Under the pieces are notes generated by a model. That model ran no database searches. It was not told the DNA's origin and saw only the letters and a list, made by a program, of their open reading frames with translations. DNA of 64,000 nt from a virus. Each line of letters opens with the position of its first letter. Position 1 is the stretch's first letter. Both the position numbers and the translations under genes were made by a program. Positions 12,468 to 61,504 of this stretch are shown here, in pieces. The stretch is taken from positions 2,176 through 66,175 of IMG/VR virus record IMGVR_UViG_3300012943_000029. One strand, written 5' to 3'.

Positions 12468-12770
12468 TTAGTCGGAATTCAAGAGCTTGCGTAGCTCGTG
12501 GAACCTTTTCTTGTGATACCCCATTTCCTCAGCAATGAGGAACTGGCGGTGCTGCTCAGCATCCTCAACGGTATCAAAGAACTTGTGGTCCTTGTTGACC
12601 ATGTAGTAAGGGTGCGCCTTTCTATAGTCCTCAGCTGGAACTATCGTGAACTCAACATCACGCTCAATGCACCACCGGGTATCGGGTGGTGGGGTTGGGC
12701 CCTTATGCACGTCGCACAGCGCTTCACCACACTCAGGGCAAACCATCTCAGCTCTGTAGTGTCCCATCAT
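12468..12770 (-). CDS. small putative Zn-binding protein
   Basis: CPECGEALCDVH; SD GGAGGA. Confidence 0.65.
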   Translation of the reverse strand: MMGHYRAEMVCPECGEALCDVHKGPTPPPDTRWCIERDVEFTIVPAEDYRKAHPYYMVNKDHKFFDTVEDAEQHRQFLIAEEMGYHKKRFHELRKLLNSD

Positions 12771-12775
12771 TCCTC

Positions 12776-14032
12776 CTAGTCAACAGATACGCGAATAGAC
12801 GTCTCGCGAGCAATGTGGTGTATGAGCTCTTCAGGCGTCAAGTCGGATCTTACACCATCAACACCGTCATGTAGGTGCAGACCCGTCTTTCCTAGAGCAT
12901 TCCAAATCTTGTAGCGCGCCTCACGTTCCCATACGAAGTACTGTCTGAACACTTCCTTCTGGTTCTCACGCGTTGGCTTCTTGTTCACCATGAAGCATAG
13001 ATCCCGGCGCGCGGCAACAAACTGACGCACTAGCACCTGCAGCCGCTTACCAACCCGCAGCTTTTCGCTTGCGAGCATGTCAGGACAGGCCTCATGTATC
13101 AGCTGAACCGCCGTAGAGCGGCCAGAACCATTGGTCATAAGGGCAGGCGAGATGTTTGAGCCGTTGGCAATCGCCATGATGATCTTCTTCACGCGATCGA
13201 TGTTGTCATGGTTCGGCTCAATGCCTAAGGTCTCGCAGATCTCAGCCCTGAACTTTGACTTGTTGCCGTTGGCGCGCAGAAGTTCTGAATACTTAAGCTC
13301 GAGCCGCGTGCGGTTCTTGGCATACTTCTCTTCAAGGCGCTGCACTACAAACTGAAGGTACGAGTTGTCAATGTCGACAGACTGGCCAAACAGGGTACGG
13401 CGCAGCGCGGAGGGCCACAGCTCAATCGAGCGGATGGGCCAGACTGACTTGTCTCGAGCTCCAAGCTTTCCGGCTGGCTCGTAGTAGAACGTGAGCGGTG
13501 CTTCTTGCCTGCAGAGCCACTCAATAGGTGCGACGAGGTCCTGACGACCATCATGCTTCAACTCGGCGATGAGCGCCTTCACGTCGAATTTCTCGAGGTG
13601 AACCGTGCTCTTCGTCAGCTTTGGATTTGTTGGCGCAAAGCCAGGGTCGAACACGACCTCATCGGCGATGGCAGCGATGGCGTCCCACATCTTCTTGTTG
13701 AGCTTGCGTGGGGAAATAACTGATGGGGAACGGTTGCTGCTGTCGAAGCAGAAACCAATGCGCTTGACTGTGAAGAACTTATCGAGGATCTTACGGGCGT
13801 CCTTCACCTGGCGCGTGAGGTTCGTGATGAAGGTTTCGCGCTCGATGAAGCCCTCACTTCCTGGGTGGCGCTTGACGATGCGATACCACGCGAGGGCGAT
13901 GGAGATGATGAGCCCTTGGCGCGTTTTTCGCTTACGCCACCACATGCCCTTGAGAGCAAAGAAGTTTCCGACGTAGAGGGGATTGTTTCGTTCGAGCTCT
14001 CGCTCGATGTTAACCGGGTGGAATACCAGCAC
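12776..14032 (-). CDS. minimal family-A polymerase-like protein (palm/fingers only)
   Basis: Motif A-like SVDIDNSYLQF, motif B-like RVKKIIMAIANG, motif C-like LHLHDGV in the correct order; GTG start. Confidence 0.6.
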   Translation of the reverse strand: MLVFHPVNIERELERNNPLYVGNFFALKGMWWRKRKTRQGLIISIALAWYRIVKRHPGSEGFIERETFITNLTRQVKDARKILDKFFTVKRIGFCFDSSNRSPSVISPRKLNKKMWDAIAAIADEVVFDPGFAPTNPKLTKSTVHLEKFDVKALIAELKHDGRQDLVAPIEWLCRQEAPLTFYYEPAGKLGARDKSVWPIRSIELWPSALRRTLFGQSVDIDNSYLQFVVQRLEEKYAKNRTRLELKYSELLRANGNKSKFRAEICETLGIEPNHDNIDRVKKIIMAIANGSNISPALMTNGSGRSTAVQLIHEACPDMLASEKLRVGKRLQVLVRQFVAARRDLCFMVNKKPTRENQKEVFRQYFVWEREARYKIWNALGKTGLHLHDGVDGVRSDLTPEELIHHIARETSIRVSVD

Positions 14033-14528: not shown

Positions 14529-14792
14529 TCAACCGCGGCCGGACAGAACTGCCTGAACGCCGTGAACCTTCATCCTGTGGTATACGCCGCGTGGGCACAT
14601 TGGATCGAGGACGCGCGCATTCCTTGCTGCACGATGAACGATTTCCTCACCGTTCTCATCAAACTTGCCGGTGTGGATTACGTGATCACCCTGCTTCACC
14701 GCTCCGTAGCGGGTCCAAGGCTCCTTCAGAACTCCCTTCTTGAGGGCCTGACGAACTACCATTCGAATTGCCTTGGCTTTCTTGAGGTTCAT
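14529..14792 (-). CDS. hypothetical basic protein
   Basis: 87 aa, SD AAGGA, ATG start. Confidence 0.65.
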   Translation of the reverse strand: MNLKKAKAIRMVVRQALKKGVLKEPWTRYGAVKQGDHVIHTGKFDENGEEIVHRAARNARVLDPMCPRGVYHRMKVHGVQAVLSGRG

Positions 14793-15333
14793 TTGTGTTT
14801 TCCTTATTTGCTATGAGCGCACCATCAAACCAGAACTGCGGATACTTCAGCAGCTCTTCGAGATAGGTGATGTAAATTCTTTGACCATTGCCTTCAATGA
14901 CAAGCGGACATGGGTGGAACCCAATACCTGTCGTTGCCGCAAAGATCGGCGTGTTGTTCCACTTGAAGATGAGCAGCGGCCGGCGATCAATCTTGACAGC
15001 ATCGACCTCAGCTTCCTTCATCCATGCATAAACGTTAGATGTTCCGGAAACGAGTGAGGTGAATGGATCCTGGGTCTTGTAGAACTTACATTCAATGGAG
15101 TGCTTGAACGTAACGCCAGCCTCCTTCTCGTTGACAGGAACGACGTCGCCAACAAACAGCTTAAGCGCATCTGCACCGAACATCTGCCCAAGGGTCTCAA
15201 AGTTCTTACCGCCAACGCGGGCGCCAGAGCTCTGAGTGCGAATGAACTTCAGTGGCGATAGCGCCTCTGAAAGCTTCTTCGCTACTGTTCCCTCGAAGCC
15301 GTTGCCTTTCGCCTTGCCACCACCAGGTCTCAT
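14686..15333 (-). CDS. Holliday junction resolvase-like PD-(D/E)xK endonuclease
   Basis: KAKGNGFE, RTQSSGA, GDVV and IECKFYK motifs. Confidence 0.8.
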   Translation of the reverse strand: MRPGGGKAKGNGFEGTVAKKLSEALSPLKFIRTQSSGARVGGKNFETLGQMFGADALKLFVGDVVPVNEKEAGVTFKHSIECKFYKTQDPFTSLVSGTSNVYAWMKEAEVDAVKIDRRPLLIFKWNNTPIFAATTGIGFHPCPLVIEGNGQRIYITYLEELLKYPQFWFDGALIANKENTNEPQESQGNSNGSSSGPQEGSSEGALDPLRSGEAG

Positions 15334-15701
15334 GCTGCGGTATCCTTGTCGATGGCACCGATTGAGATGATGTTGTACTCGCTGACCTTGCCGTTCTCGT
15401 CGATCTTGCCGATGCCAGCGGTGCGGAACACGATCTTGTTCTCGGCGAGCAGCTTCTTCAGCTCTTCGCCTTTCTGTGTCTTCAGCACAGTCGCATTGCC
15501 AACGAGGTAGCCATCTTCAATGGAGAGGTTGTTCACAACGTGCGACACCTCTGACAGCTGGACGCTTGCTTCACTGGGCATGCCAAGGGTACCAAGCACC
15601 GCCTTGTTTTCTAGGCGATCGATGGCTGATTGAATTGTGGCTGTTGCGTAGATGCGTCCGTTTTTGTTGGCAGCGTCGAGCTTCAAAATCTTGATCTTCA
15701 T
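15330..15701 (-). CDS. degenerate prohead protease paralog (gp21 fold, catalytic positions substituted)
   Basis: NKNGRIY, LGTLGMP, VSHVV, VLKTQKGEELK and FRTAGIG align with gp21 at 5950..6564; start moved to the ATG at 15701. Confidence 0.8.
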   Translation of the reverse strand: MKIKILKLDAANKNGRIYATATIQSAIDRLENKAVLGTLGMPSEASVQLSEVSHVVNNLSIEDGYLVGNATVLKTQKGEELKKLLAENKIVFRTAGIGKIDENGKVSEYNIISIGAIDKDTAA

Positions 15702-15937
15702 TATCTGTCCTCTGACCAACGCTTATCACAAAGCGTGCAATGGAAATCTACCCAGTAGCAATCAGCTGATGGGTCGTAGTTGCCGGTGTTTGAGCGAGCT
15801 GTCTCATCTAGCCCCTCTTTGGGGTGAGTGCATTCTTTCTGAATGCGCTCAAGCTCGGCTGTTGCCTCAGCGATTATGAGCCTAATCTCATCAGCTCGCT
15901 GCTTAACCGTTTGTCCTAGTCTTGATAGTGGGATCAT
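15701..15937 (-). CDS. small putative Zn-binding protein
   Basis: CTH...CYW...CTLC pattern; coupled to gp46. Confidence 0.65.
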   Translation of the reverse strand: MIPLSRLGQTVKQRADEIRLIIAEATAELERIQKECTHPKEGLDETARSNTGNYDPSADCYWVDFHCTLCDKRWSEDR

Positions 15938-17688
15938 GCTGCTTCCTCTAGTTCTTCGCCGACCACTCGCGAAAAGCCGTTCTGCTTTTGGATACGCAGT
16001 GAGTGGTCAAATCTGCCGACCGCCTCAGGGCGGTGTGAGATGATCCACAGCGCTAGGTCCTCGTCTCGTGACTTCGTCTTGAGCAGCTTGAATACGCTCT
16101 CAACACCTGGGGCATCCAGCGACGCGTCGATCTCATCGATAAACAGGCAGTTGACGCGAGCGTGCAGGTGGTGCAGTACATCGCGGAACGCCAGCGACAG
16201 TGAGAGGTTGACGCGCTTCTTCTCACCGCTGGAAAGGTTGCCGAAGTCGAGCTCGCGGCCCATCTCAGCGACAGTGCAGCTCATGTCATCGTCGAACTTG
16301 ACGATGTGCGGCAGACCCAGTTCCTTGGTGTAATGGATCAACCGATTATTTAGGAATGGAATTGTCCTGTTGATGATCCTGCGGCGGATGAAGGAGTTCT
16401 TGTCGGTGAGCAGCTTGAGAAGGAACTGCTGATGGTCAGCCTCCTTCTTCAGGTGGTCGAGTTCCTCGTAGGAGATCTTCTTGACGGCCTGACCCTTGAG
16501 CTGCTCGTAGGCATCCTCGTGTGGGTTCTCAGCATTCGTCAACTCATCAATGCGTTGCTGTGCTGTAAGGGCAGATGTCTCTGCGGCGACAGCCTCAGCC
16601 AGGTTCTTGAAATGCGCCATCTCTTTCGCTGAGAAGCGCTCACCGTCTGCCTGTGCCCTCTCATTCTCAGCAGCATCAAGGGCAGCCTTCAACTCATCTA
16701 CCTTGATTGTCTTGTTGACGAGCGACTGTTCCTTGGCCGCCAGCTTCTCTTGGGCGCCTGCATACTGCTGCAAGCAGTAAGGGCATTGGTCACTCTTGAG
16801 GTGCGTAAGCTCATCAGAAAGCTTCTTCGCATCAGTCTGTTGTGCGACCCAGTCCTTACGTGTCGCGCTGATCTTTGTGGCAAGAATGGCGAGCTTCTTG
16901 TCCTGCTCGGTAATGAACGTGTGGAGATCCTTCTCAACAGAGAAGTCTATCGTCTCTGACAGCTCGAGAGAGCTCTTTAGGCCGGCGATCTGCGAAACGC
17001 GGTCGCGCTCCCACTTGTCGACGCGGCCCTTGGCAGCTTCAAGCTGCTTCTCAAACACCTGTGCCTGAGCTTCCTGCTCCTTGATGATCGCCTCTTGAAT
17101 GGCGATAGAGCCGTCGGTGCTGCGAATGATCTCCTTCAGCTTCACGGCCTTCTCAGAGAGCAGGGTGATATTGAAGAGCTCCTCGATCTGGTTGCGCTGC
17201 TGCGAAACAGGCATCATAAGGAATGGAACCGAGTTGCCAGAGAACACCACGATCTTTGTGAAGAGGTCGTACGAGATGCCGACGATCTCCTCGATGAGCT
17301 TGTCGTTTTCAGAAACGCTGTCAAGCGTGATGAAGTCGCCGTTCATGGTGATGTAGATGTTGTACTCTTCGCCGCGCTTGCGGTGAACGATGTACTCGTC
17401 CTCACCCTTCATGAAGCAGAGCTTCACCTCCATCATCGTGTTCTTGGTGGCGTTGGTAGAGTTGATCAGCTTCTGCAGGCCAATGTTGTCGAACGGCTTG
17501 TTGTAGATGGCGTAGCAGATGGCATTGATGATCGTCGTCTTGCCGGCACCGTTGTTGGAGCCAGTGTCAAGGTTCTCACCAATGATGAGGGTGGAACCTT
17601 TACCGCTGAGGTCGATGCGCGTGAGGATGTTGCCGAAAGACAGGAAATTTCGGATCTCCATCCACTTGAAGATTAGTGGGGTGCTCAT
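15934..17688 (-). CDS. gp46: recombination endonuclease ATPase subunit, gp46 (Rad50/SbcC-like)
   Basis: Walker A NGAGKTT, CPYC hook, signature LSSGEK, FIDEID, ISH. Confidence 0.97.
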   Translation of the reverse strand: MSTPLIFKWMEIRNFLSFGNILTRIDLSGKGSTLIIGENLDTGSNNGAGKTTIINAICYAIYNKPFDNIGLQKLINSTNATKNTMMEVKLCFMKGEDEYIVHRKRGEEYNIYITMNGDFITLDSVSENDKLIEEIVGISYDLFTKIVVFSGNSVPFLMMPVSQQRNQIEELFNITLLSEKAVKLKEIIRSTDGSIAIQEAIIKEQEAQAQVFEKQLEAAKGRVDKWERDRVSQIAGLKSSLELSETIDFSVEKDLHTFITEQDKKLAILATKISATRKDWVAQQTDAKKLSDELTHLKSDQCPYCLQQYAGAQEKLAAKEQSLVNKTIKVDELKAALDAAENERAQADGERFSAKEMAHFKNLAEAVAAETSALTAQQRIDELTNAENPHEDAYEQLKGQAVKKISYEELDHLKKEADHQQFLLKLLTDKNSFIRRRIINRTIPFLNNRLIHYTKELGLPHIVKFDDDMSCTVAEMGRELDFGNLSSGEKKRVNLSLSLAFRDVLHHLHARVNCLFIDEIDASLDAPGVESVFKLLKTKSRDEDLALWIISHRPEAVGRFDHSLRIQKQNGFSRVVGEELEEAA

Positions 17689-18716
17689 AGTCTCTGGTAG
17701 ATGTCAATCAATCTGGTTGGGTCGATGGTGCTGGTGCCGGTAATACCGCTCTGCAGCATGCCAACGACGGCGTCGTTCAGCGAGCTAAGGTCAAAGTCCT
17801 CAATGCTCTCCTCACCGGCTATGGCATCGCGCCGCTCGTAGAGGTTCTCTTCAAGTGAGAACTCACGAAGGCCGAGACCTGTCGTCATCTCATCGCGCAG
17901 CGTCTGCGCATCTGAGTAGCCGATCTCGGTATCGATGATGCAGCGAACGCGGCACTTCTCTGGAAAGTCTGGCAGCTGGTCGAGGACCGCTGAGAGCTTC
18001 ACCTTGCGGTACTTCGGGCAGTCTTCCCAGTCAATGAAGTCCACCTCGTCGGTGTCTGTGTTGAGCACGCACATGCCGCGCTCATCATCCCATGCATCGC
18101 CGTAGTCCATTGGGAAGCAGTTGCCGATGTACACGACGTTGTCGCAGGCCTGCCGCTTGTGGAAGTGGCCGCTGAAGATATACGTAGGACCAGCAAACAT
18201 CGTGTGCTCTGGCCCATGCTCCATGCGGCGGTCCGAACCGGTCACGACGAAGTTACGGAACTCAAAGTGGCCCATCCAATATGGAAGGTGCGTGTACTGT
18301 ACCAGGTCGGCGTATTCGTCCTTGAACATGAACGGCGCGAGCAACAGCTTCTGATCGATCACGATCGGTTCATTCACGAGAGCAACGTTCTGGAACTCGC
18401 TGAACACCTTCGTCGAGTAGACGCTGCGGTTTTCACGGTGATAGAGGTCGTGGTTGCCGATGATGATGAACACTGGCAGGCCGAGCGAGTTCAGCTCAAT
18501 GAGCGCCTCATGCGCAAAGTTGAGCGTCATCACGTTGACCGAGTTGCGGTTCTCGAACCAGTCGCCCATGAACACCACGCGAGAGATGTCCTTGTCCTTG
18601 CGCACGTTGGCGCAGAACCACCTAACGAAGTCAAGGCAGTCCTGGTTGTGTTGCACGGAATTGTTCTTCTTGCCGAAGTGGATATCCGTGAACATCGCTA
18701 CTTTGTTTAGCGACAC
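17685..18716 (-). CDS. gp47: recombination endonuclease nuclease subunit, gp47 (Mre11/SbcD-like)
   Basis: FTDIHFG, MGDWFE, GNHD, GHFE and SGHFH metallophosphoesterase motifs. Confidence 0.96.
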   Translation of the reverse strand: MSLNKVAMFTDIHFGKKNNSVQHNQDCLDFVRWFCANVRKDKDISRVVFMGDWFENRNSVNVMTLNFAHEALIELNSLGLPVFIIIGNHDLYHRENRSVYSTKVFSEFQNVALVNEPIVIDQKLLLAPFMFKDEYADLVQYTHLPYWMGHFEFRNFVVTGSDRRMEHGPEHTMFAGPTYIFSGHFHKRQACDNVVYIGNCFPMDYGDAWDDERGMCVLNTDTDEVDFIDWEDCPKYRKVKLSAVLDQLPDFPEKCRVRCIIDTEIGYSDAQTLRDEMTTGLGLREFSLEENLYERRDAIAGEESIEDFDLSSLNDAVVGMLQSGITGTSTIDPTRLIDIYQRL

Positions 18717-25584: not shown

Positions 25585-25956
25585 ATGAACAAGGTCATCT
25601 ACAAGGGGTTCTCGACAGCCAACTGGCTGAAGAACAAGACGTTTGCCCTGAACAACATGGAGCTGGTGAAGCAAGATCTGCTTCAGCACATCTATACGAT
25701 CAAGGGTGAGCGCATTATGATGCCGAACTTTGGCACCAGGATCCCAACGCTGACCTTTGAGCCGAACGATGAGCAGACCAGAAAGATCATTGAGGACGAC
25801 CTAACTGAGGTGTTCAACTATGATCCGCGCGTCAAGCTCATCTCGCTGAACGTGTTGACGCTGCCTGACAACAATGCCATCCTTGCGATGGCTGACCTGC
25901 TGTACGTTGAGCTGAACGTTACTGACGTCCTTCACATTGAGATCTCTTCACAATGA
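25585..25956 (+). CDS. gp25: baseplate wedge protein gp25-like
   Basis: KGERIMMPNFGTRI...LTFEP...YDPRV. Confidence 0.92.
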   Translation: MNKVIYKGFSTANWLKNKTFALNNMELVKQDLLQHIYTIKGERIMMPNFGTRIPTLTFEPNDEQTRKIIEDDLTEVFNYDPRVKLISLNVLTLPDNNAILAMADLLYVELNVTDVLHIEISSQ

Positions 25957-28900
25957 CGATTATCAACACCTACGCCGCCGAAAGTTGGGACAAGGTTTAC
26001 TCTGCTTTCCAGCAGATCAACTTCACGTCTTATGACTACGACACCGTCAAAGAGAGCTTGCTGCAGTACCTGCAGATCTACCATCCTGAGGACTTCAACG
26101 ACTTCATTGAAAGCTCGGAGCTTATCGCGCTCCTTGAGCTGTTCGCCTACACCGCCGAGCTCATGGCGTACCGCACCGACATGGCGGCCCATGAAAACTT
26201 CATCACGACGGCGCAGCGCAAGCAGTCAGTGCTGCGCCTCGCCAAGCTGATCTCGTACAACGCAGCGCGCAACATTCCTGCTCGCGGTCTTGTAAAGATC
26301 AACACGGTCCGCACCGCTGAAACCATCTTCGACAGCCTCGGCAACAACCTTGCTAACATCACAATCACGTGGAACGATCCGAACAACACCAACTGGAAGG
26401 AACAGTTCTTCCTGGTGATGAACCTCATTCTCACGTCGCGCTTCGGTCAGCCATCGAAGTCGTTCCAGATCGCCGATGTTCTGATGCAGCTGTACACCTT
26501 CAATAACTCACCTTCAGCTTTCCGCAATGGCGTGTTCTCGTTCAACGCCACCGGCACAACTGAGAGCCTGCCAATGGAGGTCGTGCCAATCGACATCGAC
26601 CAGAACGGTCCATTCGAGCGCGCGCCGGACATCAACGCTCAGTTTAACATCGTCTACGCATCTGACGGTCGCGGAGATGGCTCTGACTATACCGGCTTCC
26701 TGATGTTCGTCAAGCAGGGAACTCTCGTCCTTACGAACTACACGATCACCGAGCCAACGGCCAACCGCCGCCTTGTGCTCAACCAGATCAACGTCAACGA
26801 CACCGACGTTTGGGTCTACAGCGTTGACGACATTGGCACCATCACGTCAAAGTGGACAGCCGTAGACAGCATCGCTGACCAGACCCTCGCCTTCAACAAT
26901 CAGGAGGGCCGCACGAAGTACGAAATTGAAACCCTCGAGAACGACCAGATTGCCCTGCTCTTTGGTGACGGTAACTTCAGCGACGTTCCAGTTGGTAACT
27001 TCCAGCTGTGGACGCGCGCCTCTGCAAACCAGGACATCACAGTTCCAAAGAACCGCGTGTCAGGTCAGGCAATGCAGTTTACCTACCAGAACGCGCAGAA
27101 CGTTCAGCAGAACTTCAACCTTACCTTCTCGCTTACCTCGGCGCTGCAGAACAACTCAGCCTCTGAGACCATCGAGCACGTTCGTCAGTCCGCCCCTTCG
27201 ACCTACTATGCGCAGAACCGCATGGTCAACGGCCAGGACTACAACACGTTCATGCTCAAGGACAGCACGATCCTCAAGCTGAACACGATCAACCGCACGT
27301 TCGCTGGTCAGCCAAAGTACATTGAGTGGAACGACGCATCAGGCGCGTACCAGAACATCAAGCTCTTCGGTGACGACCTCACCATGCGCCTAGATACCAG
27401 CGTCAACCTCGTTCAGACGACGGTGGCCGCCAAGGGAATTATCGACGGCTTCATTGAACCGGTGCTTTCATCGAACGCCATCCTCAACGTGCTCACGCAC
27501 GTCATGGCTACGGCACCAGCATCTGATGGCATTATCAGCTACCCGCGCCGCAAGTTCATTGAGGATAACAGAAAGATCTACAAGGACGTCAACGGCGACA
27601 ACGTAATGCCGTATGGCTATCTCAGTGATGATCCGAATGATGCCCAAATAACACAAGCCCTTCCAGGATCTGACGACGGCTCGCTGCTTGAGAAGACCGT
27701 GATCCAGTCGGCGCTCGACAATCACTGGTACGGTGATCCGCTTTCAACCGTCTCGATCAACAGCACGCTGCATGGCGTCATCCCTGACCCGATCCTCAAC
27801 CCATCTGACGACAGCAAGCTGTACCTCGCCGACCTCCCACGTACAATCGACGGCGTCAACACGTATCCACCAGGCGATACTGGTTCTGGTCTTCAGACCG
27901 CTGGTCGTCAGCAGTATTTTGGTCTTCAGTTCAACCGCTTCCTAAGTGGATTTGGTGATAGCACCATAACCCTTTACGAGATTGGCTCGCCAACGGCTTA
28001 CCCTGGCCCTGGTCCGGCACCAACTAGTGATGGTATTGATGAGCTGAAGATTGAAACACTCACAATCGAAATGACGTCTGACGGAACGACTTTCACGGTT
28101 GTCAGCAATCTCCGTGGACAACTACCAAACTACAGCCTCACGCTTGCGCTTTCGCCATCAATGGCACGCTGGTCAGAGCAAAATCCTAACGTCTCGCTAC
28201 CAACCGATTTCGCCATCGACACGACATCAAGCACCACTCCATTCGAAGCGGGCGATGCGTTTGTTGTGGACATTGAATTCACTGGAACATGGAATGCAAC
28301 AGTAAGACAGTTCGGAACGCCATCTCCTATCATGTGTGTCAACCTTTCCGGTTGGTGGCAGCTTATCCCTGGCAGCGTGATAACTGGACAGCTTGGCATC
28401 TTCACCAGCGGTGAGAGCGATGGCCCGGACCTTGTTCAACAGCAACAGTTCGACCAGTCGACCAATGGTGGTGCATGGGTGTTCCTCATCTCGCGTGTTG
28501 ACGAGCTCCCATCTGGCGACACGAAGAGCTGGAACATCTACAACCGTGACATGCGTGTTCTTGTCTCAAGCCCGACGACAAAATTTTGGTACAACACTGA
28601 CGCGCAGCTTATCGACAGCGAAACGCTCAAGCCGCTGTACGACAAGATCCGCATCCTTCGCTCAAACCTTGACGAGAATGGCATGCCTCTTAAGAAGGCA
28701 GATATCTATGACTGCGTCGGCTTCGTATACGACGAGAATGGCGTAGTAGACCCAAACAGCCTAGAGGTTGTACCGACTGACACCATCAACTTCACTCAGG
28801 CCGGTGATGGCGCTCCAGATAACATCCTTCAGTTTGAGGCGTTCGCTAAACAGGCATATCGCTACTTCACAGTGAACGTGTCTACGCCTACAAATCCAGT

Positions 28901-29738
28901 AATCTCGAATGAGCCGGTTAATTGCGATGATGTTGACGATATCACGTATGGCACATATCCATCTAATGACACCGTTGAAGTTGTAGGATTTGGCACCTTC
29001 ACATTCAAGATTGGCGACTTCATGTCGATTAATGAAATTAGCAGCACCAAGCTGCTGCGTCAGCCATATGTTCCCGCTCCAACAGTGTTCGTAGATAGTG
29101 AATTCATCTGCAACATCATAAACGGTCTTGACTTCATGTGGCAGCACTTCACGCCTGATGCAAACCTCGTTGACCCATCAGTGTCTAACATCCATGATGC
29201 GTTCATTCTCACCAGCGGTTACTACAACAGCGTGATTGACTACGTACGCGGCCTGACGAACATCACCCCAACACCACCTACACCGCTCGACCTTCGTACG
29301 TCGTACGGCTACCTGCTCGACAACAAGATGCTGTCAGACACGGTCGTGTTGCACCCTGGCAAGGTCAAGCTGCTCTTTGGTTCGCTTGCCGACCAGAAGC
29401 TGCGCGCCAAGTTCAGGGTCGTGCTCGCACCTACTGCAACGTTCTCTGCCGAGCGCGTCAAGCAGGAGGTCATCAACGTCATCAATCAGTACTTTGAGAT
29501 CTCAAACTGGGACTTCGGTGACACCTTCTACGCGACTGAGCTCATCGCCCTGATCCACCAGGCTCTGCCAACGCAGATCGCCTCAGTGGTCATCGTGCCA
29601 ACGTACTCGGTCAACTCGTTTGGTTCTCTGTTCACGATTAACTCCGGTCTTGATGAAGTTCTTCAGTCAGCTGCCACGATCGGCGATGTTGAGATAGTGT
29701 CAGCCCTGACACCTACTGTTCTGCGCCAGAACGTCTAA
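25953..29738 (+). CDS. gp6: baseplate wedge protein gp6 / baseplate J-like
   Basis: YDYDTVKESL, NDFIESSE, ENFITTAQRKQSVLRLAKLISY, QNRMVNGQDY. Confidence 0.85.
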   Translation: MTIINTYAAESWDKVYSAFQQINFTSYDYDTVKESLLQYLQIYHPEDFNDFIESSELIALLELFAYTAELMAYRTDMAAHENFITTAQRKQSVLRLAKLISYNAARNIPARGLVKINTVRTAETIFDSLGNNLANITITWNDPNNTNWKEQFFLVMNLILTSRFGQPSKSFQIADVLMQLYTFNNSPSAFRNGVFSFNATGTTESLPMEVVPIDIDQNGPFERAPDINAQFNIVYASDGRGDGSDYTGFLMFVKQGTLVLTNYTITEPTANRRLVLNQINVNDTDVWVYSVDDIGTITSKWTAVDSIADQTLAFNNQEGRTKYEIETLENDQIALLFGDGNFSDVPVGNFQLWTRASANQDITVPKNRVSGQAMQFTYQNAQNVQQNFNLTFSLTSALQNNSASETIEHVRQSAPSTYYAQNRMVNGQDYNTFMLKDSTILKLNTINRTFAGQPKYIEWNDASGAYQNIKLFGDDLTMRLDTSVNLVQTTVAAKGIIDGFIEPVLSSNAILNVLTHVMATAPASDGIISYPRRKFIEDNRKIYKDVNGDNVMPYGYLSDDPNDAQITQALPGSDDGSLLEKTVIQSALDNHWYGDPLSTVSINSTLHGVIPDPILNPSDDSKLYLADLPRTIDGVNTYPPGDTGSGLQTAGRQQYFGLQFNRFLSGFGDSTITLYEIGSPTAYPGPGPAPTSDGIDELKIETLTIEMTSDGTTFTVVSNLRGQLPNYSLTLALSPSMARWSEQNPNVSLPTDFAIDTTSSTTPFEAGDAFVVDIEFTGTWNATVRQFGTPSPIMCVNLSGWWQLIPGSVITGQLGIFTSGESDGPDLVQQQQFDQSTNGGAWVFLISRVDELPSGDTKSWNIYNRDMRVLVSSPTTKFWYNTDAQLIDSETLKPLYDKIRILRSNLDENGMPLKKADIYDCVGFVYDENGVVDPNSLEVVPTDTINFTQAGDGAPDNILQFEAFAKQAYRYFTVNVSTPTNPVISNEPVNCDDVDDITYGTYPSNDTVEVVGFGTFTFKIGDFMSINEISSTKLLRQPYVPAPTVFVDSEFICNIINGLDFMWQHFTPDANLVDPSVSNIHDAFILTSGYYNSVIDYVRGLTNITPTPPTPLDLRTSYGYLLDNKMLSDTVVLHPGKVKLLFGSLADQKLRAKFRVVLAPTATFSAERVKQEVINVINQYFEISNWDFGDTFYATELIALIHQALPTQIASVVIVPTYSVNSFGSLFTINSGLDEVLQSAATIGDVEIVSALTPTVLRQNV

Positions 29739-29800: not shown

Positions 29801-32800
29801 ATGGCTCAAAATATCGACTTCAATAAGCTGGTTCCAGGCACCCTCAAAAATGAGATGCTTGACAGCCTCGTCAAGAACCTGTTCAACCGCTTCGTTTCCC
29901 AAGAAGATAGCGTCCTTGTCTCCGGCAGAATTGGAACCCCGGTTGAAGGTGACAGTGACATCAAGCAGCCAAACCTTGAGCGCCAGGAGAACGAGCTTGT
30001 TCCAGGCCTGACCTTCTCGGCCGGCAAAGAGCGCTTTGTTTTCACGTTCGATGACCTCGTCAACAAGATGGAGGTCCTCGGTATCGATGTTGCCAGCCTG
30101 CGTGGCTGGATGGCAGAGCAGACCTTCAACTACTCGCCACCAATCGACTACGATCGCTTCATCAACTACGCGAACTACTACTGGACTGGCAAGGCGATCA
30201 ACGACGCTGCTCCAGTGTGGAGCCCAGACAACTCACCCGAGTATTACGTCATTGAGCGCCCACGCCCAAACGATCTCGTAAAGATGCCAGTGCGCCTTGC
30301 TACAACGCGCAACATCAATCGTCAGATCAACGATCGCCCAACCGAAACGCTCACCATCGAGTTCACATCGACAACGACGTTCGGCGTTACGAGTGACATT
30401 GATCCAAACGTTTTCGGCAGCGTGGGTTCAATCTCACCAACGCCAGGCGATCAGACGCTTGTCGTCGTGAAGACGAATGACACAGGCACGGCACCATCGC
30501 TAGACGCACCAGGCCTGCCGGACTATGACCTTGTGCAGCTGTACATCATCGGCGGCACCATGCCGTTCGCCGCTGGCGACCAGATCGTAATTGAGATCAC
30601 GTACTACACCAGCAACATCTACATCTCAGTCGTTTCACCGAACCTAATTGGTAAGGGAACCGCAAGCGGTGTGGCAACGCTCTCGCCATTCATGTACATT
30701 GATGGTGAGCAGGTGGAGATTGGTGATCGCATCCTCGTCAAGGACCAGACCGATGCGTCTGAGAACGGCATCTACACGGTAGTTCGTGGCTCGCAGTGGG
30801 TAAGAACATTTGACGCGGTGTCTGTGGACAACCTCCAGGACGGTGTAAAGGTGTATGTCAATGGCGGTGCCACCCTCGCTGGCAACACCTACACCCTCAC
30901 GAATACCGCAAACGCCGGTATTCCACCATACGATTTCCCAACTGACCTCAACTTCGCGCTCACGTCGACAACTGACCCGAGCCCAGTGAATGAGTGGCAG
31001 ATCTACAACTACTGGGTGCATAAGGACGACATCTACCAGTACGCTAATCTCGGCGTCACGCTTGGTAATGTTCAGCAGGCAAACCGTCCGATCATCGAAT
31101 ACAACAACCGCCTGCACCTCAACTCAGCGATTGACGGTGCTGGTGGCCCAGCTGAGCCAGGCGTAGGCCATATTGATGTTCAGCAGGTAAAGACGCGCTT
31201 CAACCAGATCCCACAGTTTGATCTCTATCGCTACGATGGCACTCACGCTGGTGCAACATCTGGCATCTGGTACTTCCTTGAGGATCCAAACTTTGAGACT
31301 GACGCCGTGCTCCAGCGCCGCGTTGCTATCACAGCGAACAGCGACTACATCTTTGGCTGCGCCGCAACTGATGATGCTGGGCGCCTTTACTACTACAAGG
31401 TTGATGGCGAACTTCAGTCGATCTGGGCACCAGGTCCTGACGTTACTGCCACTTCCACGCCGCTCTTCGTCGGTGTCAGCGTTGATAGCGCAGGTACCGT
31501 GGTATTCAACTCACTCGGCGCAACAGCCGACAACCAGCACTGGACAGTTCGCTTCAGCAGCGCCACATCAGCTGAGGTCATTGGCTCAAGGAGCGGCAGC
31601 GTTGGTACCCTGACCGTTGGCACCGCCTTTACGTGCGATGACTTCAATGTTACCATCAGCGCAGGCGTTGATCCATATGCTGACGGTGATGTGTTCACGT
31701 TCAACGTCTACAACAAGCTTGCCCCTCGCTACATCAAGGAAGATGTCGATGGCAGCATTATCAACTACCCAGGCGGCTACGCAGCCGACCAAGCGCTGAC
31801 AGAGCCGGTAGGCGCGTGGCTCACGCCATCACGCATGTTCCAGAACATGTTCCGTGAAACGCGTGAGGAGATCGCATTCGGTGACTTCCTTACGCATGCC
31901 CGATCTGTGCTCAAGTGGCAGGACGGTTTCACCGGTTCTTCGTTCGGCAACAACAATTCTCGCACCCTCGATTTTGATCCAGGTCTGGGCGGTCAGATCC
32001 GTGAGTTCGGCAGCAACTTCCCGCTGCTCGCCTCCATGCTCATTGAGCAGGATATCTCGCCGCTGACGATCCTCACGTTTGCTGAGCAGCAGTACAACGT
32101 TGCGCTGTCGAGCATTGATCAGTTCATCATTGATGAAGTTCCTGGTTACCTCTCAGCGATTGGTCAGATTGAAACCACCGTCATCAACGCCAGCGCCCCA
32201 GACATTCTTGCGCTCGAAGCGTACTTTGAAAAGCTGCGCGGTGAGGACGTCAATCTTTCTGGTATCTACAGCGACAGCACATCGCTCGTGGAGAACTGGC
32301 CAGCCACGCTGCCAATGATCGGTCTTCTTCCTAAGGTTCAGCCTGACATCGTTCTCGACAACGAGATGAACGCCTACGTCATCAGGCACCATGATGGCCA
32401 CGTATCTACGCTCGCCGCATTTGACCAAGTGATGAACACCAAGCTTGCGAAGACCGTCGTGAAGCGCTCAGATGGCAACACGACGCCTGGCTTTTTCTTG
32501 TCGACCACGCCAGCCTACCCAACAAACACGCCATACGCAAGTCAGCTGTGGTTCAAGACCACCGATGGAACGCTGATGGTGTTCAACGTCAGGTACGATG
32601 CTGAGCCGCTTAGCCCACTTGATGGTGAGACATGGTACAAGCGCGACGTAAACCAGGTTTGGATCTGGGACGCCACCTTCAACACGTGGTCCCCATCTGT
32701 AAATCCACCGTCATCTTACTGGATCCCATTCACGCCTGAGAACGTGCGCAACAGCCTTGTGCTTGCAGTCGAGCAGAAGCTCTACAACAGCGTGCACCCT

Positions 32801-35800
32801 GCGCAGCAGATCAACCTCGACATGGCGACAGATGTCAATGCGTCGCCGCAGGCTGGTACCTATGCCGAGATTGAGCTTGCAACGTTTGCCGCCAAGTACA
32901 ACTACGACATCTACGGTCCCGACTACGATGCCGCCAACGCGTTCACATGGAACTACTCACAGGCGGTTCCTACGCTCAGCGATTTCCCAGGCTTTGTAAC
33001 GGTTCCTGCTCGCTGGAACAAGATCCTTGAAGAATACTTCGGCGCTCAGGTAAACACCATCTCAACAGACCGCCCAGATCTCTTCCCATGGAGGCTTGGT
33101 ACCGCGGCATGTCCAGCCGTTGACAGTGATGTGGCGCCAACAAGCCCTATCGACTGGAACGCTACCTACAAGAACACCATCGCTGCTACATCAAACGCCG
33201 TTGCGGCAAAGGTAGTGAGCATCGCCGACGTCCCGACACCGCTCATGGGTCTCATCACCATCGACGGCTACGTGCTGCAAGCCGGTGATCGTGTGCTGCT
33301 GCTCGGTCAGCTGCTTCCAGAACAGAACGGCCTGTACGTCGCTGCGGCTGGCGGTTGGTCAAGAACTGCTGACCCAATTGTCACTGGTCTTACCGTCAAC
33401 GTTTCAGCCGGTGCCTCACAGGCGGGTACCACTTGGGTGCTCACAACGATCGGTGCCATCACTGTCAACATCACACCGCTCACCTTTGATCAGTCGAGAA
33501 TTTGGTCAAACCAGATGTGGGCTGACATCAAGGTCTACAACCCTGGCGTTCGCCTAAGCGTGAACACCGTCACCGATGCACTGCTGGCACCGTACGTGGC
33601 AAGCGCCATTCAGCCTGGCTACACGCTCCCACCAGCTCAGGCCGTTGAAGCGCTGACATCTACGATACCAGCAGGCACCAACCTTGGTTACCAGTTTGGC
33701 GATGATGGCCCAGTAGAGCTCGTGTGGACGAAGTCGCTTGAGTACAACTACGGCATCGCTCGTACCTACTTCAAGCTGTTCCCACTCAAGTTCCTTGACG
33801 CAAGCTGGGGTGAGACCTACGTTTCGACTGGTGACAATCTCCGAATTGAGCGCAACCTCGCGACATCTCTTTCATCGAAGAAGTTCCTGCTGCACGGTGA
33901 GCGCCTCAACATCATCAACTCATATCGCCCACAGCTCAAGGCGCAGTTCGACCAGTACGTTCTAGACGGTGACATCGTCTGGGGCGCCGACTTCGGCGGC
34001 GTTGTTGAGTTCAAGGTTACTCACGTCGCATCGACTGGTCAAGTCGGACCGCTTCCTACATTCGCTAATCTTGGTCCATCAGCAACCGTCTTCAACATCA
34101 TCATTGACGGTGTTCCGACGAACACCTACGTCTATGAGGGTGTTCCATTCACCTTCACATATGGAACTGCGCCTGATGATGTTGCGTTCACGAGCATCAC
34201 CATCGATGACTTTGGTATCCCATTCGAGCTGAATGACGTCATCACCATCGGCTTCTCACCTGACACCATCACGACTGAGATCCCAACTATCGGCACCGAC
34301 TTCGTCTACGGCTTGCTCGGTTGCGAGGGCTGCGTTGCCGACGCAACACCGGATCCTTCGACCATCATCACGATCATTCCTGGTGCTGCTGCCTTTGGCT
34401 TTACCGCTGGTCAGGTGAAGGTGTTTAAGGGAACTGGTCAGTGGTTCACAAACCTGATGCGCTACAGCACCGTTGATACAAACGCGTCGACATCGGCGCT
34501 CGCCTACCGTGGCTGGGACATCCGCCTTGTGCACCGTCTCGGCGCCCTTATCCGCCCAGAAACGCTGAACATCATCGCGGCTGCTGGAAAGATGCCGACA
34601 ACCGGCTACAGCATGCTGCTCAAGCGCTCTGAGAAGACGAAGAGCCTGTGGATCTCTGGTCTCCGCGTTCAGGTGGTGCAGATGGGCGCCAAGATCCTGA
34701 ACCCAGGCGGTCTGTACGTTCCAAAGAACGACGCATCAGATTGGATCTTCCGCCTTGAGGTCTACAACCCATATCACCCGCTCATCGAGTACAACATCTT
34801 TGGTGGCGACCCTACGCTCAATCAGCCAGCGGTCGGCACGTTCACGACCTTCAACGTTCTCGACCAGCGTACGACTTCCCTCGTTTGGAAACGCTACAAC
34901 CAGCCGACCGCAACTGAGACATCCACGATGCCAGTTCAGATCATCGGCCTTCAGAACCTTCTCAACTTGATCTACGGCTATGTTGGTCAGCTCGAGGAGC
35001 AGGGGTTCCTAACGAACACTGGTAAGGCGCTCATCGACAAGGCAACGGGCCGCGCCGTTGATTGGCAGCTTGAGGTTGAGAAGCTCATCAACACCATCTA
35101 CACGGGTGTGAACGCTGGCTCAGGTATCATCGTGAACCCGTTCATGGAGAAGCTGTTCCTCGATACCCCTATCGGCCTCATGAGCCGCTACACTGAGACA
35201 AAGTTCATCGACCATAGCTCGGCGCAGGCATGCTACGACGTCATCGGGTCTGTGATCCCAGTCAACAAGCTTAGCGTGATCCGTACCGACCCTAACACGA
35301 TCACCTACTCGAAGACCCCAATTTTCTCAGCTCACGTCTTCATTGACGAGTACGAACATGCGATCCTGTTCAACGATCACTTCTCTGGTGATCCAACATC
35401 AGCCGCGATCTTTGATCAGTTCCTTGGCTCGTACATGAACACGGCTGCCCTGTCGTTCAACCGCCAGAACCGCGTTGACGGCAAGCCAACGTTCGACGGC
35501 TTCTTCCTCAATGATGACAACATCATCAGGAACCCAACATCAAACGTTGACGCTCTTGCCCGCGCGTACGACGCCGGTCAGACCTTCAACGAGCCGAAGA
35601 TGGCTGAGCACGCGCTCGCCCTGATCGGCTACAAGAGCAAGGACTACTTCAACAACATCAACATCAGCGACCAAACGCAGCTTGACTTCTGGCGTGGCAT
35701 GATCGGTGCGAAGGGAACGAACCTCACCATCGATGCCTTCACGAACTACAAGGAGTTCCTCAACTCATCTGTTGATGAGTTCTGGGCGTACAAGCTTGCC

Positions 35801-38800
35801 ACCTATGGTGATGATCGTGAGCGCTCATTCCCCGAGGTGAAGATTGAGCCGAACGACTGCACACGCCAGTTCACGGGCATTCAGTTTAACTCAACAGAAT
35901 ATCCTCAGTCTGCGCTGCCGCTCTATATGCAGGTAGCCGAGTATGACGACACTCGTTGGTTCAGCATTGACGACCTCGGCACCATGCTGCGCTTTGATGC
36001 CGATGCGCTCACTGAGACGGTAGTTGTTTCAGCCGACGATTTTGCTGCCAGCCCATACGTCATTCTTCAGAACATCTTCCACACCGGCGATGCAGCTCCA
36101 ATCACAAGCGGTGGTTCATCTCTTGTTGCGGCGAACATCCTTGAAGTCCCATCAGCTGGCACATACACCGTGACTGGCTTCACATGGATCAACCCAACGA
36201 AGCTGTCACCGATCAAGCTGTTCGACTACTCAACTGATACGCTCGTAACGCAGGTAAGCCTGTGGCATCCAGCCATCGGCATCCATGAGCCAACCGCTCT
36301 TGAGCTGGTGAACATCCGCTCGAGCGGTGATCCAGCCCACTACAGCTACACTACACTGACGACTGACAACCCTAACTACCTGGCCCTCAAGCCATGGAAT
36401 GAGCAAGAGGTTGGTCGCGTCTGGTGGGATACAAGCACGCTTGCCTACACGCCGTACTATGACGCTCTCACCTTCCCTAACCGTGAAACGCGCCACAACC
36501 GCTGGGGTTCCCTCGCCGAATACGCAAGCGTTGATCTCTACCAGTGGACAGCATCTGACTACCACCCATCTGAGTACAATGAGGCAGCAGCTGAGCAGGA
36601 GGGTGACAGCAGCATTGACCAATCAGTGCGCCTCTCTGGTGAAGTTGGCTTCACGAACTACTATCGTGCTGAGCGCAGCATCACGATCAAGCCAATCGCG
36701 TGGTCGCAGACAAGCTCATCGAACGGTCTCGCGCACCCAGCGTTTGGTCCTGCCACGTTCGTCAAGGTGTTCAACTCAAACAATCGCCTCGTGGTTGATA
36801 CTGGCCGTCTTGCAAGCATCAACATTGTCACTGGATACAACTTCGGTGGTTGGTCAGATGATGGCATCACGCAAAAGCCAGTCGGCGAGGTAGTAATTGG
36901 AACTGACGTCATCTACGATGTCGGCTCATCGGTATCTCCAGCCGCGCCAGTTGTGCTGTCAAACGATGTCACCATTGATGACATTGAAGTTACCGGCATT
37001 GACGACAGCATTGCGTTCGGTACACGCATCGGTCAGATTTCCATTGCCGGTGTTGAAACATCTCCGTTCGTTCCAGCCATTCCGTATGATGACAATGGAA
37101 CACCTGGTGATCCATCAGATGACACCTTGGCAGTCGATGCAGTTCCAGCAACATACGTTGCTCGCCTCACAGATCAGAACGGCTTCTTCCAAGATCTGCC
37201 GCTCTCTGACTGGAGCTCAGCTGATCTGTCTACGAACTCGAAGATCGTTCTTGCCTTCGACAAGTTCGGCCTGCAGCTCACGCTGACGCGCGCGGGTGTC
37301 GGTATCGTCACCGCGCAGGAGCTTGCCAACTCTCTCAACGGCACAGCCAATGACGTGTTCGTGCGCGAGGCCGTCGACTACACCTCTATCGTTGCGCTAC
37401 CTGATGTGATGTTCAGCAACAACGCATCTGACAGCCCCAACTACGGTTGGAAGGTATGGCAGATACCAACTCAGGCGCAGCTTCGCGCTGACCTCGCATA
37501 CCCAAACAACAAATGGCAGCCATACATCGGCGACAGCAGCACGGTGTTGATCACGGCTGACGTTGCTGCTGCCATGAACAGCTCAGCAAACACGTGGAAC
37601 CTTGTCAACGGCATCACGATCAATCGCTACACCTCAGCATGGAGCGAGTGGGTCAAGCTTCAGAACACGTCAAAGACCATCGTCTCAGACAGCCTAACAG
37701 CACCGACATTCACCTTCGAGAACGAAACTGAGCTCGACGCAAACCGCCTGTCGATCTACGCAAATGGCATTCAGATTGCTCCAGCCCAGATTGTGATCTC
37801 CGACAACACTGCCACGGCCGTAAATACGCAGCCAGAAGGCACGCTGATGTACGCGCTGTACCGCCCTTACCAGCCAACTGCAAGCGATCTCGCCTTTGAC
37901 CCAACGGTAGAGGATGACTTCCAGGTGCAGACGTGGTACAAGGTGGACTACCAGTACACCGAGCGCGTCATTCGCAACTCAGCCGGAAATATCTCTGGCA
38001 AGAAGTACTACTTCTGGGTTAAGAACAAGACGGTTCCGGAGACCAACAAGTCAATGTCGCTCGAGCAGGCCGCCGACCTTCTAAGGTATGGCTCATCCAC
38101 CTACATGATCTTCTCACGGCTCGTGACTGACACGAATGCTGAGAGCGGAACTGCGTATGATAGCTGCGCTATCTCCGGTCTCACTCGCCTTATCACCAAG
38201 ACTGGCTCTTATAAGCTGCGCTTCCTTCGCGACTTCACGCTGCGTGATGATCCAGAGGAGCTCAAGCTCAAGAACGTTCACACTGAGTGGAAGCTCATTC
38301 GCCAGCACATGTCAGACAAGATCCCGGCCCAGCTGTGGGCGCTGCTCACCAACTCGGTCTGCGCACAGGATGTGGCTGGCAACCCTCTGCCATCAACCAC
38401 CCGCATCAACTACGATGAGAAGTACGGCACCAACACCCGCTTTGGCTTTGAGAGCGATCAGATCTTTGTTGACAGCACCCTCGCAATCAACTCGATCGTG
38501 AACACCATCCTTAACACGTCACTCACGATTACCATTGGCAACATCAGCATCGTCGACTACATTACGGCGCTCAACATCAGCTCAAGCACCACTGAAGACC
38601 AGCTGAAGGCAATGTGGTTCTCAACGCCAGCTCAGTCTCGCGCCACGATGAACCTCATCTACTCGACCTCGCGCGCGTCACAGATCAATGAGATCTTCTT
38701 CAGCGTGCTGAGCGACGCCCTCGCCAACAACTACGAGTTCACCGATCTCTTCAAGACCTCACTGATCACCGTCAACTCGACGACGATCGTTAAGGCGCAG

Positions 38801-38833: not shown

Positions 38834-38834
38834 G

Positions 38835-61265: not shown

Positions 61266-61504
61266 GTAGCATGCTTCTCCACCTCTTCGCGTGTGGTGCT
61301 GGTTCTAACGCATGCATCGTCAAAGATGCTGTGAAGCACGTTCATTGTAAATCCAGAGGCATTACCTCCCCACACGCACCAGTCCAGTACCTCTAGCACC
61401 TGAAGCGGTGTAGGCTCATCGTCCCACTTCTCAATGAGTGGCTTCATGCTTGCGTCAAGCTGTCCATCCGGCGCTTCAAGCAAAAGCTGCTTCAGCTCAC
61501 TCAT
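61247..61504 (-). CDS. hypothetical protein
   Basis: 85 aa, coupled between primase and helicase. Confidence 0.65.
   Translation of the reverse strand: MSELKQLLLEAPDGQLDASMKPLIEKWDDEPTPLQVLEVLDWCVWGGNASGFTMNVLHSIFDDACVRTSTTREEVEKHATWRKNF

Follow-up and report, generated by a model that had tools for sequence, protein, structure and literature searches.

The window analysed here, i.e. a stretch of 64,000 nucleotides (nt) of viral DNA corresponding to positions 2,176 to 66,175 of the IMG/VR record IMGVR_UViG_3300012943_000029, contains at positions 12776-14032 on the minus strand an open reading frame (ORF) of 418 amino acids (aa) with a GTG start. Its translation, its homologues and an AlphaFold2 model suggest that the whole ORF encodes a minimal polymerase of the PolA/TV-Pol kind, i.e. 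a relative of the family-A DNA polymerases (PolA). A preliminary description of the window had placed a 418-aa protein at this position, and the ORF was confirmed; the GTG start is supported, as the alignments of the homologues begin at residue 1 (ML.FHPV...). A search of 5.8 billion proteins yielded 106 homologues with 36-74% identity, all of them nameless or annotated as 'hypothetical' and without Pfam domains, and their contigs are T4-like and mostly of jumbo size, many having 230-368 kb. An exhaustive search of 1.84 billion representatives with a hidden Markov model resulted in 50 clusters at 50% identity, the most distant of which share 17-22% identity, and a word-indexed search with a wide family alignment gained no further members. 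No extra domain could be recognised in ten members that were checked, comprising the longer and the most divergent ones. Within the phage record the gene is present in a single copy. Neither the 418-aa protein nor two distant members gave a match in a tblastn search of 50,697 phage records, and the family profile had no match in the records of Ma-LMM01, T7, Vibrio phage 1.063.O and RsoM2USA. The conservation of the ORF and its motifs is far above chance.

In an alignment of 17 diverse sequences, which reaches down to 17% identity, only G93, R193, P199, P207, R211, D220, K282, G291, E369 and the triplet H388-D389-G390 are invariant, and R262, located in the helix before motif B and the nearest such Arg to K282, is nearly invariant. 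This set covers the hairpin Arg, an R..FG element before motif A, motif A itself, the Lys and Gly of the O-helix, and motif C, and both the order of the motifs and their secondary-structure setting are as expected for a family-A polymerase. Based on the model and the alignment, the β-hairpin segment PAGKLGARDKSVWP (residues 186-199; 13436-13477, minus strand), which contains R193, corresponds to the T/DxxGR...P region found in PolA and in T7 RNA polymerase (RNAP). Motif A, VDIDNSYLQF, comprises residues 219-228 (13349-13378, minus strand), with D220 ending the modelled strand 218-221, which is followed by helix 224-236. Motif B, i.e. the O-helix, has the sequence KKIIMAIANGS (residues 282-292; 13157-13189, minus strand), in which K282 and G291 keep the canonical K-x8-G spacing and N290 takes the position of the canonical Tyr. 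WEREAR (residues 368-373; 12914-12931, minus strand), harbouring E369, is part of the long helix preceding motif C, and motif C, LHDGVD (residues 387-392; 12857-12874, minus strand), is predicted to form the turn of a β-hairpin with its H388-D389-G390 triplet.

The motifs are thus found where the preliminary description had located them, namely VDID at 13367-13378 (D220), KKIIMAIANG at 13160-13189 (K282 to G291) and HDG at 12863-12871 (D389), and the further elements it had listed are present in the translation as well (AGKL..R..WP, residues 187-199; LRRTLF, residues 210-215; WERE, residues 368-371). Its assignment of D220 and D389 as the Asp residues of motifs A and C agrees with their family-wide invariance, which holds for the alignment of 55 sequences as well as for that of the 17 diverse ones, and with their palm-like placement in the model. 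One weak hhalign alignment had suggested D194 as the motif A Asp; this candidate was rejected, since D194 varies in distant members and D220 does not. The overall pattern of invariance strongly argues for a working active site.

From 55 sequences AlphaFold2 produced a confident model, with a predicted local distance difference test (pLDDT) score of 90.8 and a predicted template modelling (pTM) score of 0.78. When the model was compared with the Protein Data Bank (PDB) using Foldseek, the best 50 matches were all family-A DNA polymerases (DNAPs; E 0.01-0.1, template modelling (TM) score about 0.35). A Foldseek-independent VIA search of 48,161 chains returned exclusively PolA DNAPs or T7-like RNAPs as its top 15 matches (Z 10.4 to 6.2), with Z scores of 10.4 for SFM4-3/Taq, 10.3 for Klenow, 10.2 for Pol theta, 8.2 for T7 DNAP, 8.0 for yeast mitochondrial RNAP and 7.4 for T7 RNAP; the N4 RNAPs are also among the VIA matches (Z 5.4 and 5.0). 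These alignments contain about 240-255 residues each and extend across model residues 132-418. In a second look with VIA, in which Pol theta reached a Z of 11.4 and KlenTaq 11.0, 144 chains had a Z of at least 8, the 50 shown all being PolA. Across both VIA searches the alignments to the best-scoring DNAPs (Z 10.4-11.4) cover 241-256 residues, about 245-256 in the case of Pol theta, Taq and Klenow, with a root-mean-square deviation (rmsd) of about 5 Å. Residues 132-418 of the model (12779-13639, minus strand; VIA Z 10.4-11.4, Foldseek) can thus be described as a polymerase domain consisting of a two-helix thumb stub, palm and fingers, i.e. as a right-hand fold of the Klenow/Taq type. The comparison with Klenow, T7 DNAP and T7 RNAP, which the preliminary description had put forward as a check, was therefore positive, as the top 50 Foldseek and the top 15 VIA matches are all family-A DNAPs or T7-like RNAPs.

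Further details of the palm emerged from small ferredoxin-like (HMA) domains, which align to model residues 216-418 (VIA Z 5-6, rmsd 2.3-2.9). Based on this alignment, strand 218-221, helix 224-236, hairpin 383-392, helix 400-411 and strand 415-417 constitute a β-α-β-β-α-β palm, and in the model the helical fingers (residues 241-379) are inserted into this palm core. In such a fold the C-terminal end of strand 1 adjoins the turn between strands 2 and 3, which is exactly where the model positions D220 and H388-D389. D220 at the end of a β-strand that is followed by a helix and D389 in the turn of a β-hairpin hence occupy, as far as the model goes, the places of motifs A and C in a palm.

The remaining residues, 1-131 (13640-14032, minus strand), form a small α/β domain that was also folded alone, with a pLDDT of 90.9. 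It does not clearly resemble a known fold (best VIA match an AFV1 ORF with Z 4.1; Foldseek E at least 0.27), and many weak VIA rows (Z about 3) are winged-helix DNA-binding proteins, which we take as a lead only. An exonuclease fold was not matched by these residues, neither with VIA nor with Foldseek, in accordance with the earlier claim that the protein is devoid of exonuclease domains. The N-terminal domain may stand in for most of the thumb.

The window is part of a record of 156,921 bp, the completeness of which is estimated by CheckV to be 44%, implying a jumbo phage. The T4-type genes of the record include head and portal genes, gp46/47, gp55, gp41 and gp61. The sole sequencing run listed with the stretch is a soil DNA metagenome, probably the source of the contig, and no RNA runs carrying the stretch are listed. 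A gp43-like family-B DNA polymerase (PolB) is encoded by a 957-aa frame (PF00136, E 6e-28) about 4 kb beyond the right end of the window (positions 70313-71563 of the record, minus strand), near the helicase and primase genes. The preliminary description had concluded that the 418-aa protein is not the replicative polymerase, and the presence of this PolB in the same record points in the same direction. It had also argued from adjacency to primase/helicase genes; these are located at 59919-62526, about 46 kb from the polymerase-like gene, so that this argument fails.

The immediate neighbours on the minus strand are a deoxyribosyltransferase-like gene, an 87-aa ORF, a PDDEXK_15 gene, a gp21-like fragment, gp46, gp47 and gp55, the polymerase-like gene being the distal end of this gp55-gp47-gp46-PDDEXK nuclease string. 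We compared the context in nine loci, namely that of the window plus eight metagenomic ones that are non-redundant and comprise family members at 22-26% identity. Directly upstream, a nucleoside 2-deoxyribosyltransferase-like gene (PF15891; 14010-14513, minus strand), present in four of the nine loci, overlaps the start of the polymerase-like gene by 23 nt. The PDDEXK_15 nuclease gene (14686-15333, minus strand) is found upstream in all nine. The genes for gp46 (Rad50/SbcC-like) and gp47 (Mre11/SbcD-like; together 15934-18716, minus strand), which share strand and gene string with the polymerase-like gene, are upstream in the window and in six of the eight metagenomic loci, the remainder ending at a contig edge. 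On the other flank of the window a baseplate hub gene is accompanied by a gene of 988 aa, the portal gene and head genes. The hub gene, encoded on the opposite strand, follows the polymerase-like gene in the window and in six of the eight other loci, the rest again ending at a contig edge, and usually precedes a gene of about 950-1200 aa, behind which the portal gene is located. The cultured relatives RsoM2USA and PA5oct do not have the polymerase-like gene, though both keep the gp47-gp46...hub-portal synteny, and the gene is therefore a dispensable accessory confined to one uncultured clade.

Several smaller ORFs accompany these genes. The 87-aa ORF (14529-14792, minus strand) encodes a basic protein, is conserved in four related loci, so that the protein occurs in five of the nine, and overlaps the 3' end of the PDDEXK_15 gene by 107 nt in another frame. 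As the PDDEXK ORF of the window (14686-15333) exceeds its homologues by 14-41 residues, one end may have been miscalled or the overlap may be real. Six of the nine loci, the phage record not being among them, contain directly after PDDEXK_15 a gene for a protein of about 200-217 aa with invariant RPK..K...WE and DS..NP motifs (L012:5054-5701, L004:6561-7157, L005:6989-7588, L011:3832-4473, L093:2570-3223 and L096:6095-6733); this family has no PHROG match and no Pfam match on record, no Pfam run having been made. An ORF of 100 aa (12468-12770, minus strand), starting 5 nt past the polymerase-like gene, has a strong ribosome-binding site (AGGAGG) and, in the N-terminal part of its product, a CxxC...C pattern, and is absent from all related loci examined. 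Within the gp46 string, a 129-aa ORF (15330-15719, minus strand) is similar to a portion of the prohead protease gp21, matching PHROG 207 and, below the cut-off, Pfam Peptidase_S77; it has homologues in three related loci, in one of which (L010:7278-7670) it is situated directly downstream of the polymerase-like gene. In RsoM2USA the syntenic place (MG752970.1 251624-253024; L099:12287-13687) is a 1.4-kb stretch without an annotated coding sequence, in which we detected neither ORFs of more than 77 aa nor tRNAs, Rfam matches or traces of the family; it could represent a decayed gene, an origin or a novel RNA. The structural region of the window contains three very large ORFs on the plus strand, 29801-38833 (3010 aa), 38808-42848 (1346 aa) and 25953-29738 (1261 aa).

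Taken together, we slightly hesitate to call it an even chance, but favour the idea that the 418-aa protein is an active, proofreading-less, template-dependent polymerase whose DNA synthesis is tied to recombination or repair. Our preference is based on structural scores that lean towards DNAPs, on the position of the gene at the end of a string of break-processing genes, and on the fact that PolB, gp61 and gp55 are available for the standard jobs. According to this reading the enzyme would be a member of the Pol I/T7 RNAP superfamily that is cut to a minimal palm-plus-fingers core, as TV-Pol is, and extended by a family-specific N-terminal domain of 131 residues. Coordination of the two catalytic metals would fall to D220 in motif A and D389 in motif C, with K282 of the O-helix as the ligand for the phosphates of the incoming nucleotide and R193 of the β-hairpin as the contact to the primer/template. 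As the phage has a gp43-like PolB, we assume an accessory enzyme rather than a replicase, which most likely would synthesise short patches of DNA in conjunction with the processing of double-strand breaks, recombination or repair. Whereas the ORF with its conservation, the fold, the invariant residues, the synteny and the presence of a PolB are findings of the analysis, we infer catalytic activity, DNA as the product and a link to recombination, of which DNA rather than RNA as the product is weakly suggested by the higher Z scores of the DNAPs (10-11.4 compared to 8.0 and 7.4 for the RNAPs) and by the lack of any T7-promoter-like multi-copy repeat in the window. The preliminary description had considered a specialised nucleotidyl-polymerase, with priming, repair, template-independent synthesis and DNA modification as possible functions, or an origin-binding derivative. 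The polymerase part of this proposal is supported, its list of functions being broad; an origin-binding derivative is unlikely, because the catalytic residues are invariant.

A number of observations weigh against our favoured reading. The 418-aa protein has no match at E <= 10 in Pfam or PHROGs, and the same holds for Pfam across 55 family members; since neither collection detects the family, it is at present annotated only as 'hypothetical'. Specifically, PF00476 (DNA_pol_A) was not matched at E <= 10 by the protein or its 55 homologues, nor in a six-frame search of the record. Searches of the PDB sequences with phmmer and hmmsearch yielded nothing relevant for the family. Profile-profile comparisons with hhalign, for which profiles of T7-like DNAPs and RNAPs were built from 11 sequences each from IMG/VR loci, were not significant (E 0.18-0.4 for the DNAP and 0.02-0.09 for the RNAP profile), and comparisons of the family profiles with the single sequences of T7 RNAP or T7 DNAP were not significant either. 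In the non-significant DNAP alignment, R211, D220, K282, N290 and G291 are paired with an Arg, D475, K522, Y530 and G531 of T7 DNAP; in the equally non-significant RNAP alignment motif B is exactly in register, and motif C is out of register in both. Due to these results, the kinship with polymerases rests on structure and motif logic rather than on sequence statistics. The Foldseek scores against the PDB are low (E only about 0.01, TM about 0.35), which is expected, however, as a query of 418 residues meets targets of 540-830 residues. Motif B is incomplete as compared to the canonical R-x3-K-x7-Y-G, for I278 is found at the position of the RxxxK Arg (I, L, M or V across the family) and N290 replaces the Tyr of the YG pair, a Tyr being present in only two distant members. 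Motif C reads HDG instead of HDE, G390 taking the place of the Glu. Finally, a gene order conserved within a single clade of phages is no proof that the protein functions together with gp46/47.

These deviations bring up the possibility that the protein is a catalytically dead polymerase-fold factor with a DNA-binding or regulatory role, or that the fold match is misleading and the protein is not a polymerase at all. This would account for the lack of a significant sequence link to any polymerase and for the loss of the canonical Arg of RxxxK, Tyr of YG and Glu of HDE. Both Asp residues, the O-helix Lys, the hairpin Arg and the His-Asp-Gly triplet, however, stay invariant at 17-20% identity, and the top 15 VIA matches as well as the 50 listed in the second look comprise polymerases only, so we consider a dead or unrelated protein very improbable.

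The motif details that also speak against DNA synthesis are those in which the family resembles T7 RNAP. Motif B, KKIIMAIANGS, aligns residue for residue with K631-S641 of T7 RNAP (KRSVMTLAYGS in the T7 record), the K, M, A, G and S being identical, and the Met is located where DNAPs carry Phe or Tyr. The D-x6-Q-F spacing of motif A is similar to D-x6-Q-H of T7 RNAP, i.e. an aromatic residue follows the Gln in both, and motif C, HD plus a small residue (HDG/HDS-like), is closer to T7 RNAP than to the HDE of DNAPs. A Glu at position +5 of motif A is the steric gate of PolA DNAPs, and the 418-aa family is without a Glu at this position. Due to this resemblance we take into account that the protein may be a minimal single-subunit RNAP or RNA primase of the T7 or N4 RNAPII type that makes RNA on phage DNA, the products being primers, R-loops or a few transcripts, perhaps on single-stranded DNA resected by gp46/47, with the N-terminal domain providing recognition of the template or site. 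Such a function would also be in line with the presence of mitochondrial, T7 and N4 RNAPs among the structural matches (Z 8.0, 7.4, 5.4 and 5.0), with hhalign values that are slightly better for the T7-like RNAP than for the DNAP profile (E 0.02 vs 0.4, neither being significant), and with the same suggestion having been made for divPolA2, a similarly built phage protein (PMC11348598). On the other hand, the DNAPs have the higher Z scores, Y639, the residue by which T7 RNAP reads the 2'-OH, is an Asn here, PF00940 was not matched at E <= 10 by any of 55 members in hmmscan, and every hhalign value is non-significant. Moreover, a repeated promoter-like element is absent from the window, which is weak evidence, and the phage has gp55, so that it presumably uses the host RNAP, in addition to a gp61-type primase. 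We therefore regard synthesis of RNA as rather unlikely, though still a serious alternative, and its more specific form, a minimal RNA polymerase/primase of a T4-like phage that acts on gp46/47 recombination intermediates and, e.g., primes recombination-dependent replication, as unlikely.

Structural neighbours in viral proteomes point to yet another function. In a Foldseek search of BFVD, uncharacterised proteins encoded by uncultured tailed phages rank first (E 1.3e-8 and 5.5e-6), followed by 'helicase/primase/polymerase' proteins of virophages (Qinghai Lake virophage and Zamilon; E 1e-4 to 8e-4), i.e. TV-Pol-helicase fusions, and the canonical phage PolAs score worse than these (E at least 7e-3). 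In addition, an ESM Atlas cluster with DUF5906/VapE domains (Preplasmiviricota) aligns to model residues 137-418. As TV-Pols are predicted to be primase-polymerases (PMC2579912) and primase activity has been shown experimentally for CcPol-MP (PMC10061031), the 418-aa protein might be a primase-polymerase of the TV-Pol type that starts DNA chains de novo, similar to CcPol-MP, and thereby provides a second replication start linked to an origin or to recombination, with the extra N-terminal domain contributing the template grip needed for priming. The prediction for TV-Pols was based, however, on helicase fusions or neighbours, and no D5/S3H helicase, resolvase, integrase or transposase is located beside the polymerase-like gene in the nine loci. 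A conserved OB-fold partner was not found, and the 87-aa and about 200-aa neighbour proteins are inconstant across the loci and persist in RsoM2USA without the polymerase. As, moreover, the phage already has the gp61 primase and the gp41 helicase and the gene is dispensable in related phages, we deem de novo priming of DNA quite unlikely.

Stripped-down family-A polymerases, i.e. TV-Pol, CcPol and divPolA1/2, mark the minimal catalytic unit common to Pol I and T7 RNAP, and almost none of them has been assayed. Minimal PolA-like polymerases are already known, and the 418-residue family adds a compact version with unusual substitutions at the positions of sugar selection, namely an Asn for the Tyr of the O-helix, no Glu gate and a T7 RNAP-like Met. 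The family could thus shed light on the way in which this fold is switched from synthesis of DNA to that of RNA or vice versa, and a protein of only 418 residues may be useful as a small enzyme. If synthesis of DNA in recombination or repair is indeed its task, our findings suggest that in some T4-like jumbo phages break-processing genes of the Mre11/Rad50 type are coupled with a polymerase of their own that lacks proofreading; if the protein makes RNA instead, an RNA-synthesising enzyme of the T7 type would be present in a phage lineage that is thought to depend wholly on the host RNAP and the gp61 primase.

Among known systems, TV-Pol was defined in 2008 by Iyer, Abhiman and Aravind as the minimal core of the superfamily, with a two-helix thumb, a β-hairpin with an invariant Arg, two Asp residues in an RRM palm and the RxxxK signature in the fingers (PMC2579912). 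The 418-aa protein likewise would consist of a nuclease-free family-A core, as the model contains thumb helices 151-160 and 164-175, a hairpin (180-198) with the invariant R193, D220 and D389, and helical fingers with an invariant Lys (K282). In V13-type proteins of virophages, e.g. Sputnik, the N-terminus is a TVpol domain joined to an S3H helicase (PMC3671162), and such fusions are among the best BFVD matches, behind the uncharacterised phage proteins; an extra N-terminal domain is also present on some TV-Pols. Nevertheless, the Arg of RxxxK is missing in the 418-aa family, the N-terminal domain is α/β here and not all-helical, and a sequence link was not found, the family profile being unmatched also in the record of Ma-LMM01, which holds a TV-Pol (PMC2579912). 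Moreover, the gene is neither fused to nor located beside a D5/S3H helicase, resolvase or integrase, and resides in a T4-like jumbo phage with a full replisome.

In size and architecture the protein is similar to divPolA2 of barbaviruses and Vibrio phages (representative AUR84708), which has about 430 aa and is composed of a novel N-terminal globular domain, palm and fingers (PMC11348598, 2024). Both lack an exonuclease and coexist with a regular PolB in the same genome, and the authors of the divPolA2 study were undecided between a repair DNAP and an RNAP (PMC11348598). In contrast, hhalign comparisons of the family profiles with an alignment of 21 divPolA2 sequences gave E 0.3-0.4, the 418-aa family profile was unmatched in the record MG592441, motif A of divPolA2 is DNAP-like (D-Y-K-A-F-E) whereas that of the 418-aa family is D-I-E-N-A-Y-x-Q-F, and phage group and gene context differ. 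Judged by its sequences, the 418-aa family is thus a lineage separate from divPolA2. CcPol-MP of SCCmec, too, is built on an A-family polymerase core, belongs to a mobile or viral genome and works apart from regular replication of the chromosome, but CcPol requires the small OB-fold partner MP and adjoins a helicase, and neither a conserved partner nor a helicase is linked to the gene here.

Klenow, KlenTaq, Pol theta and T7 DNAP are the best matches among solved structures (Z 10.2-11.4, 240-256 residues aligned), and the order and spacing of the motifs are similar to those in T7 DNAP (62 residues between motifs A and B and 107 between B and C, as compared to 47 and 132, respectively). Unlike the PolA enzymes, the 418-aa protein has no exonuclease domain, a much reduced thumb and no match to Pfam DNA_pol_A, and the family has N for Y in motif B, HDG for HDE and no Glu steric gate. 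With T7 RNAP and the two-subunit N4 RNAPII (PDB 6dt7) it shares the superfamily fold (Z 7.4 and 5.0) and, in the case of T7 RNAP, a near-superposable motif B sequence, the D-x6-Q spacing of motif A and HD plus a small residue in motif C. In contrast to T7 RNAP, the protein has neither an N-terminal promoter-binding domain nor a specificity loop, being too short for these elements, nor an equivalent of Tyr639 (N290); the structural scores of T7-like RNAPs are below those of the DNAPs, and PF00940 is unmatched. N4 RNAPII exemplifies that a very small T7-like enzyme can function. Taken together, our results portray the 418-aa family as a structurally clear but sequence-isolated, so far unannotated branch of the minimal PolA/TV-Pol kind.

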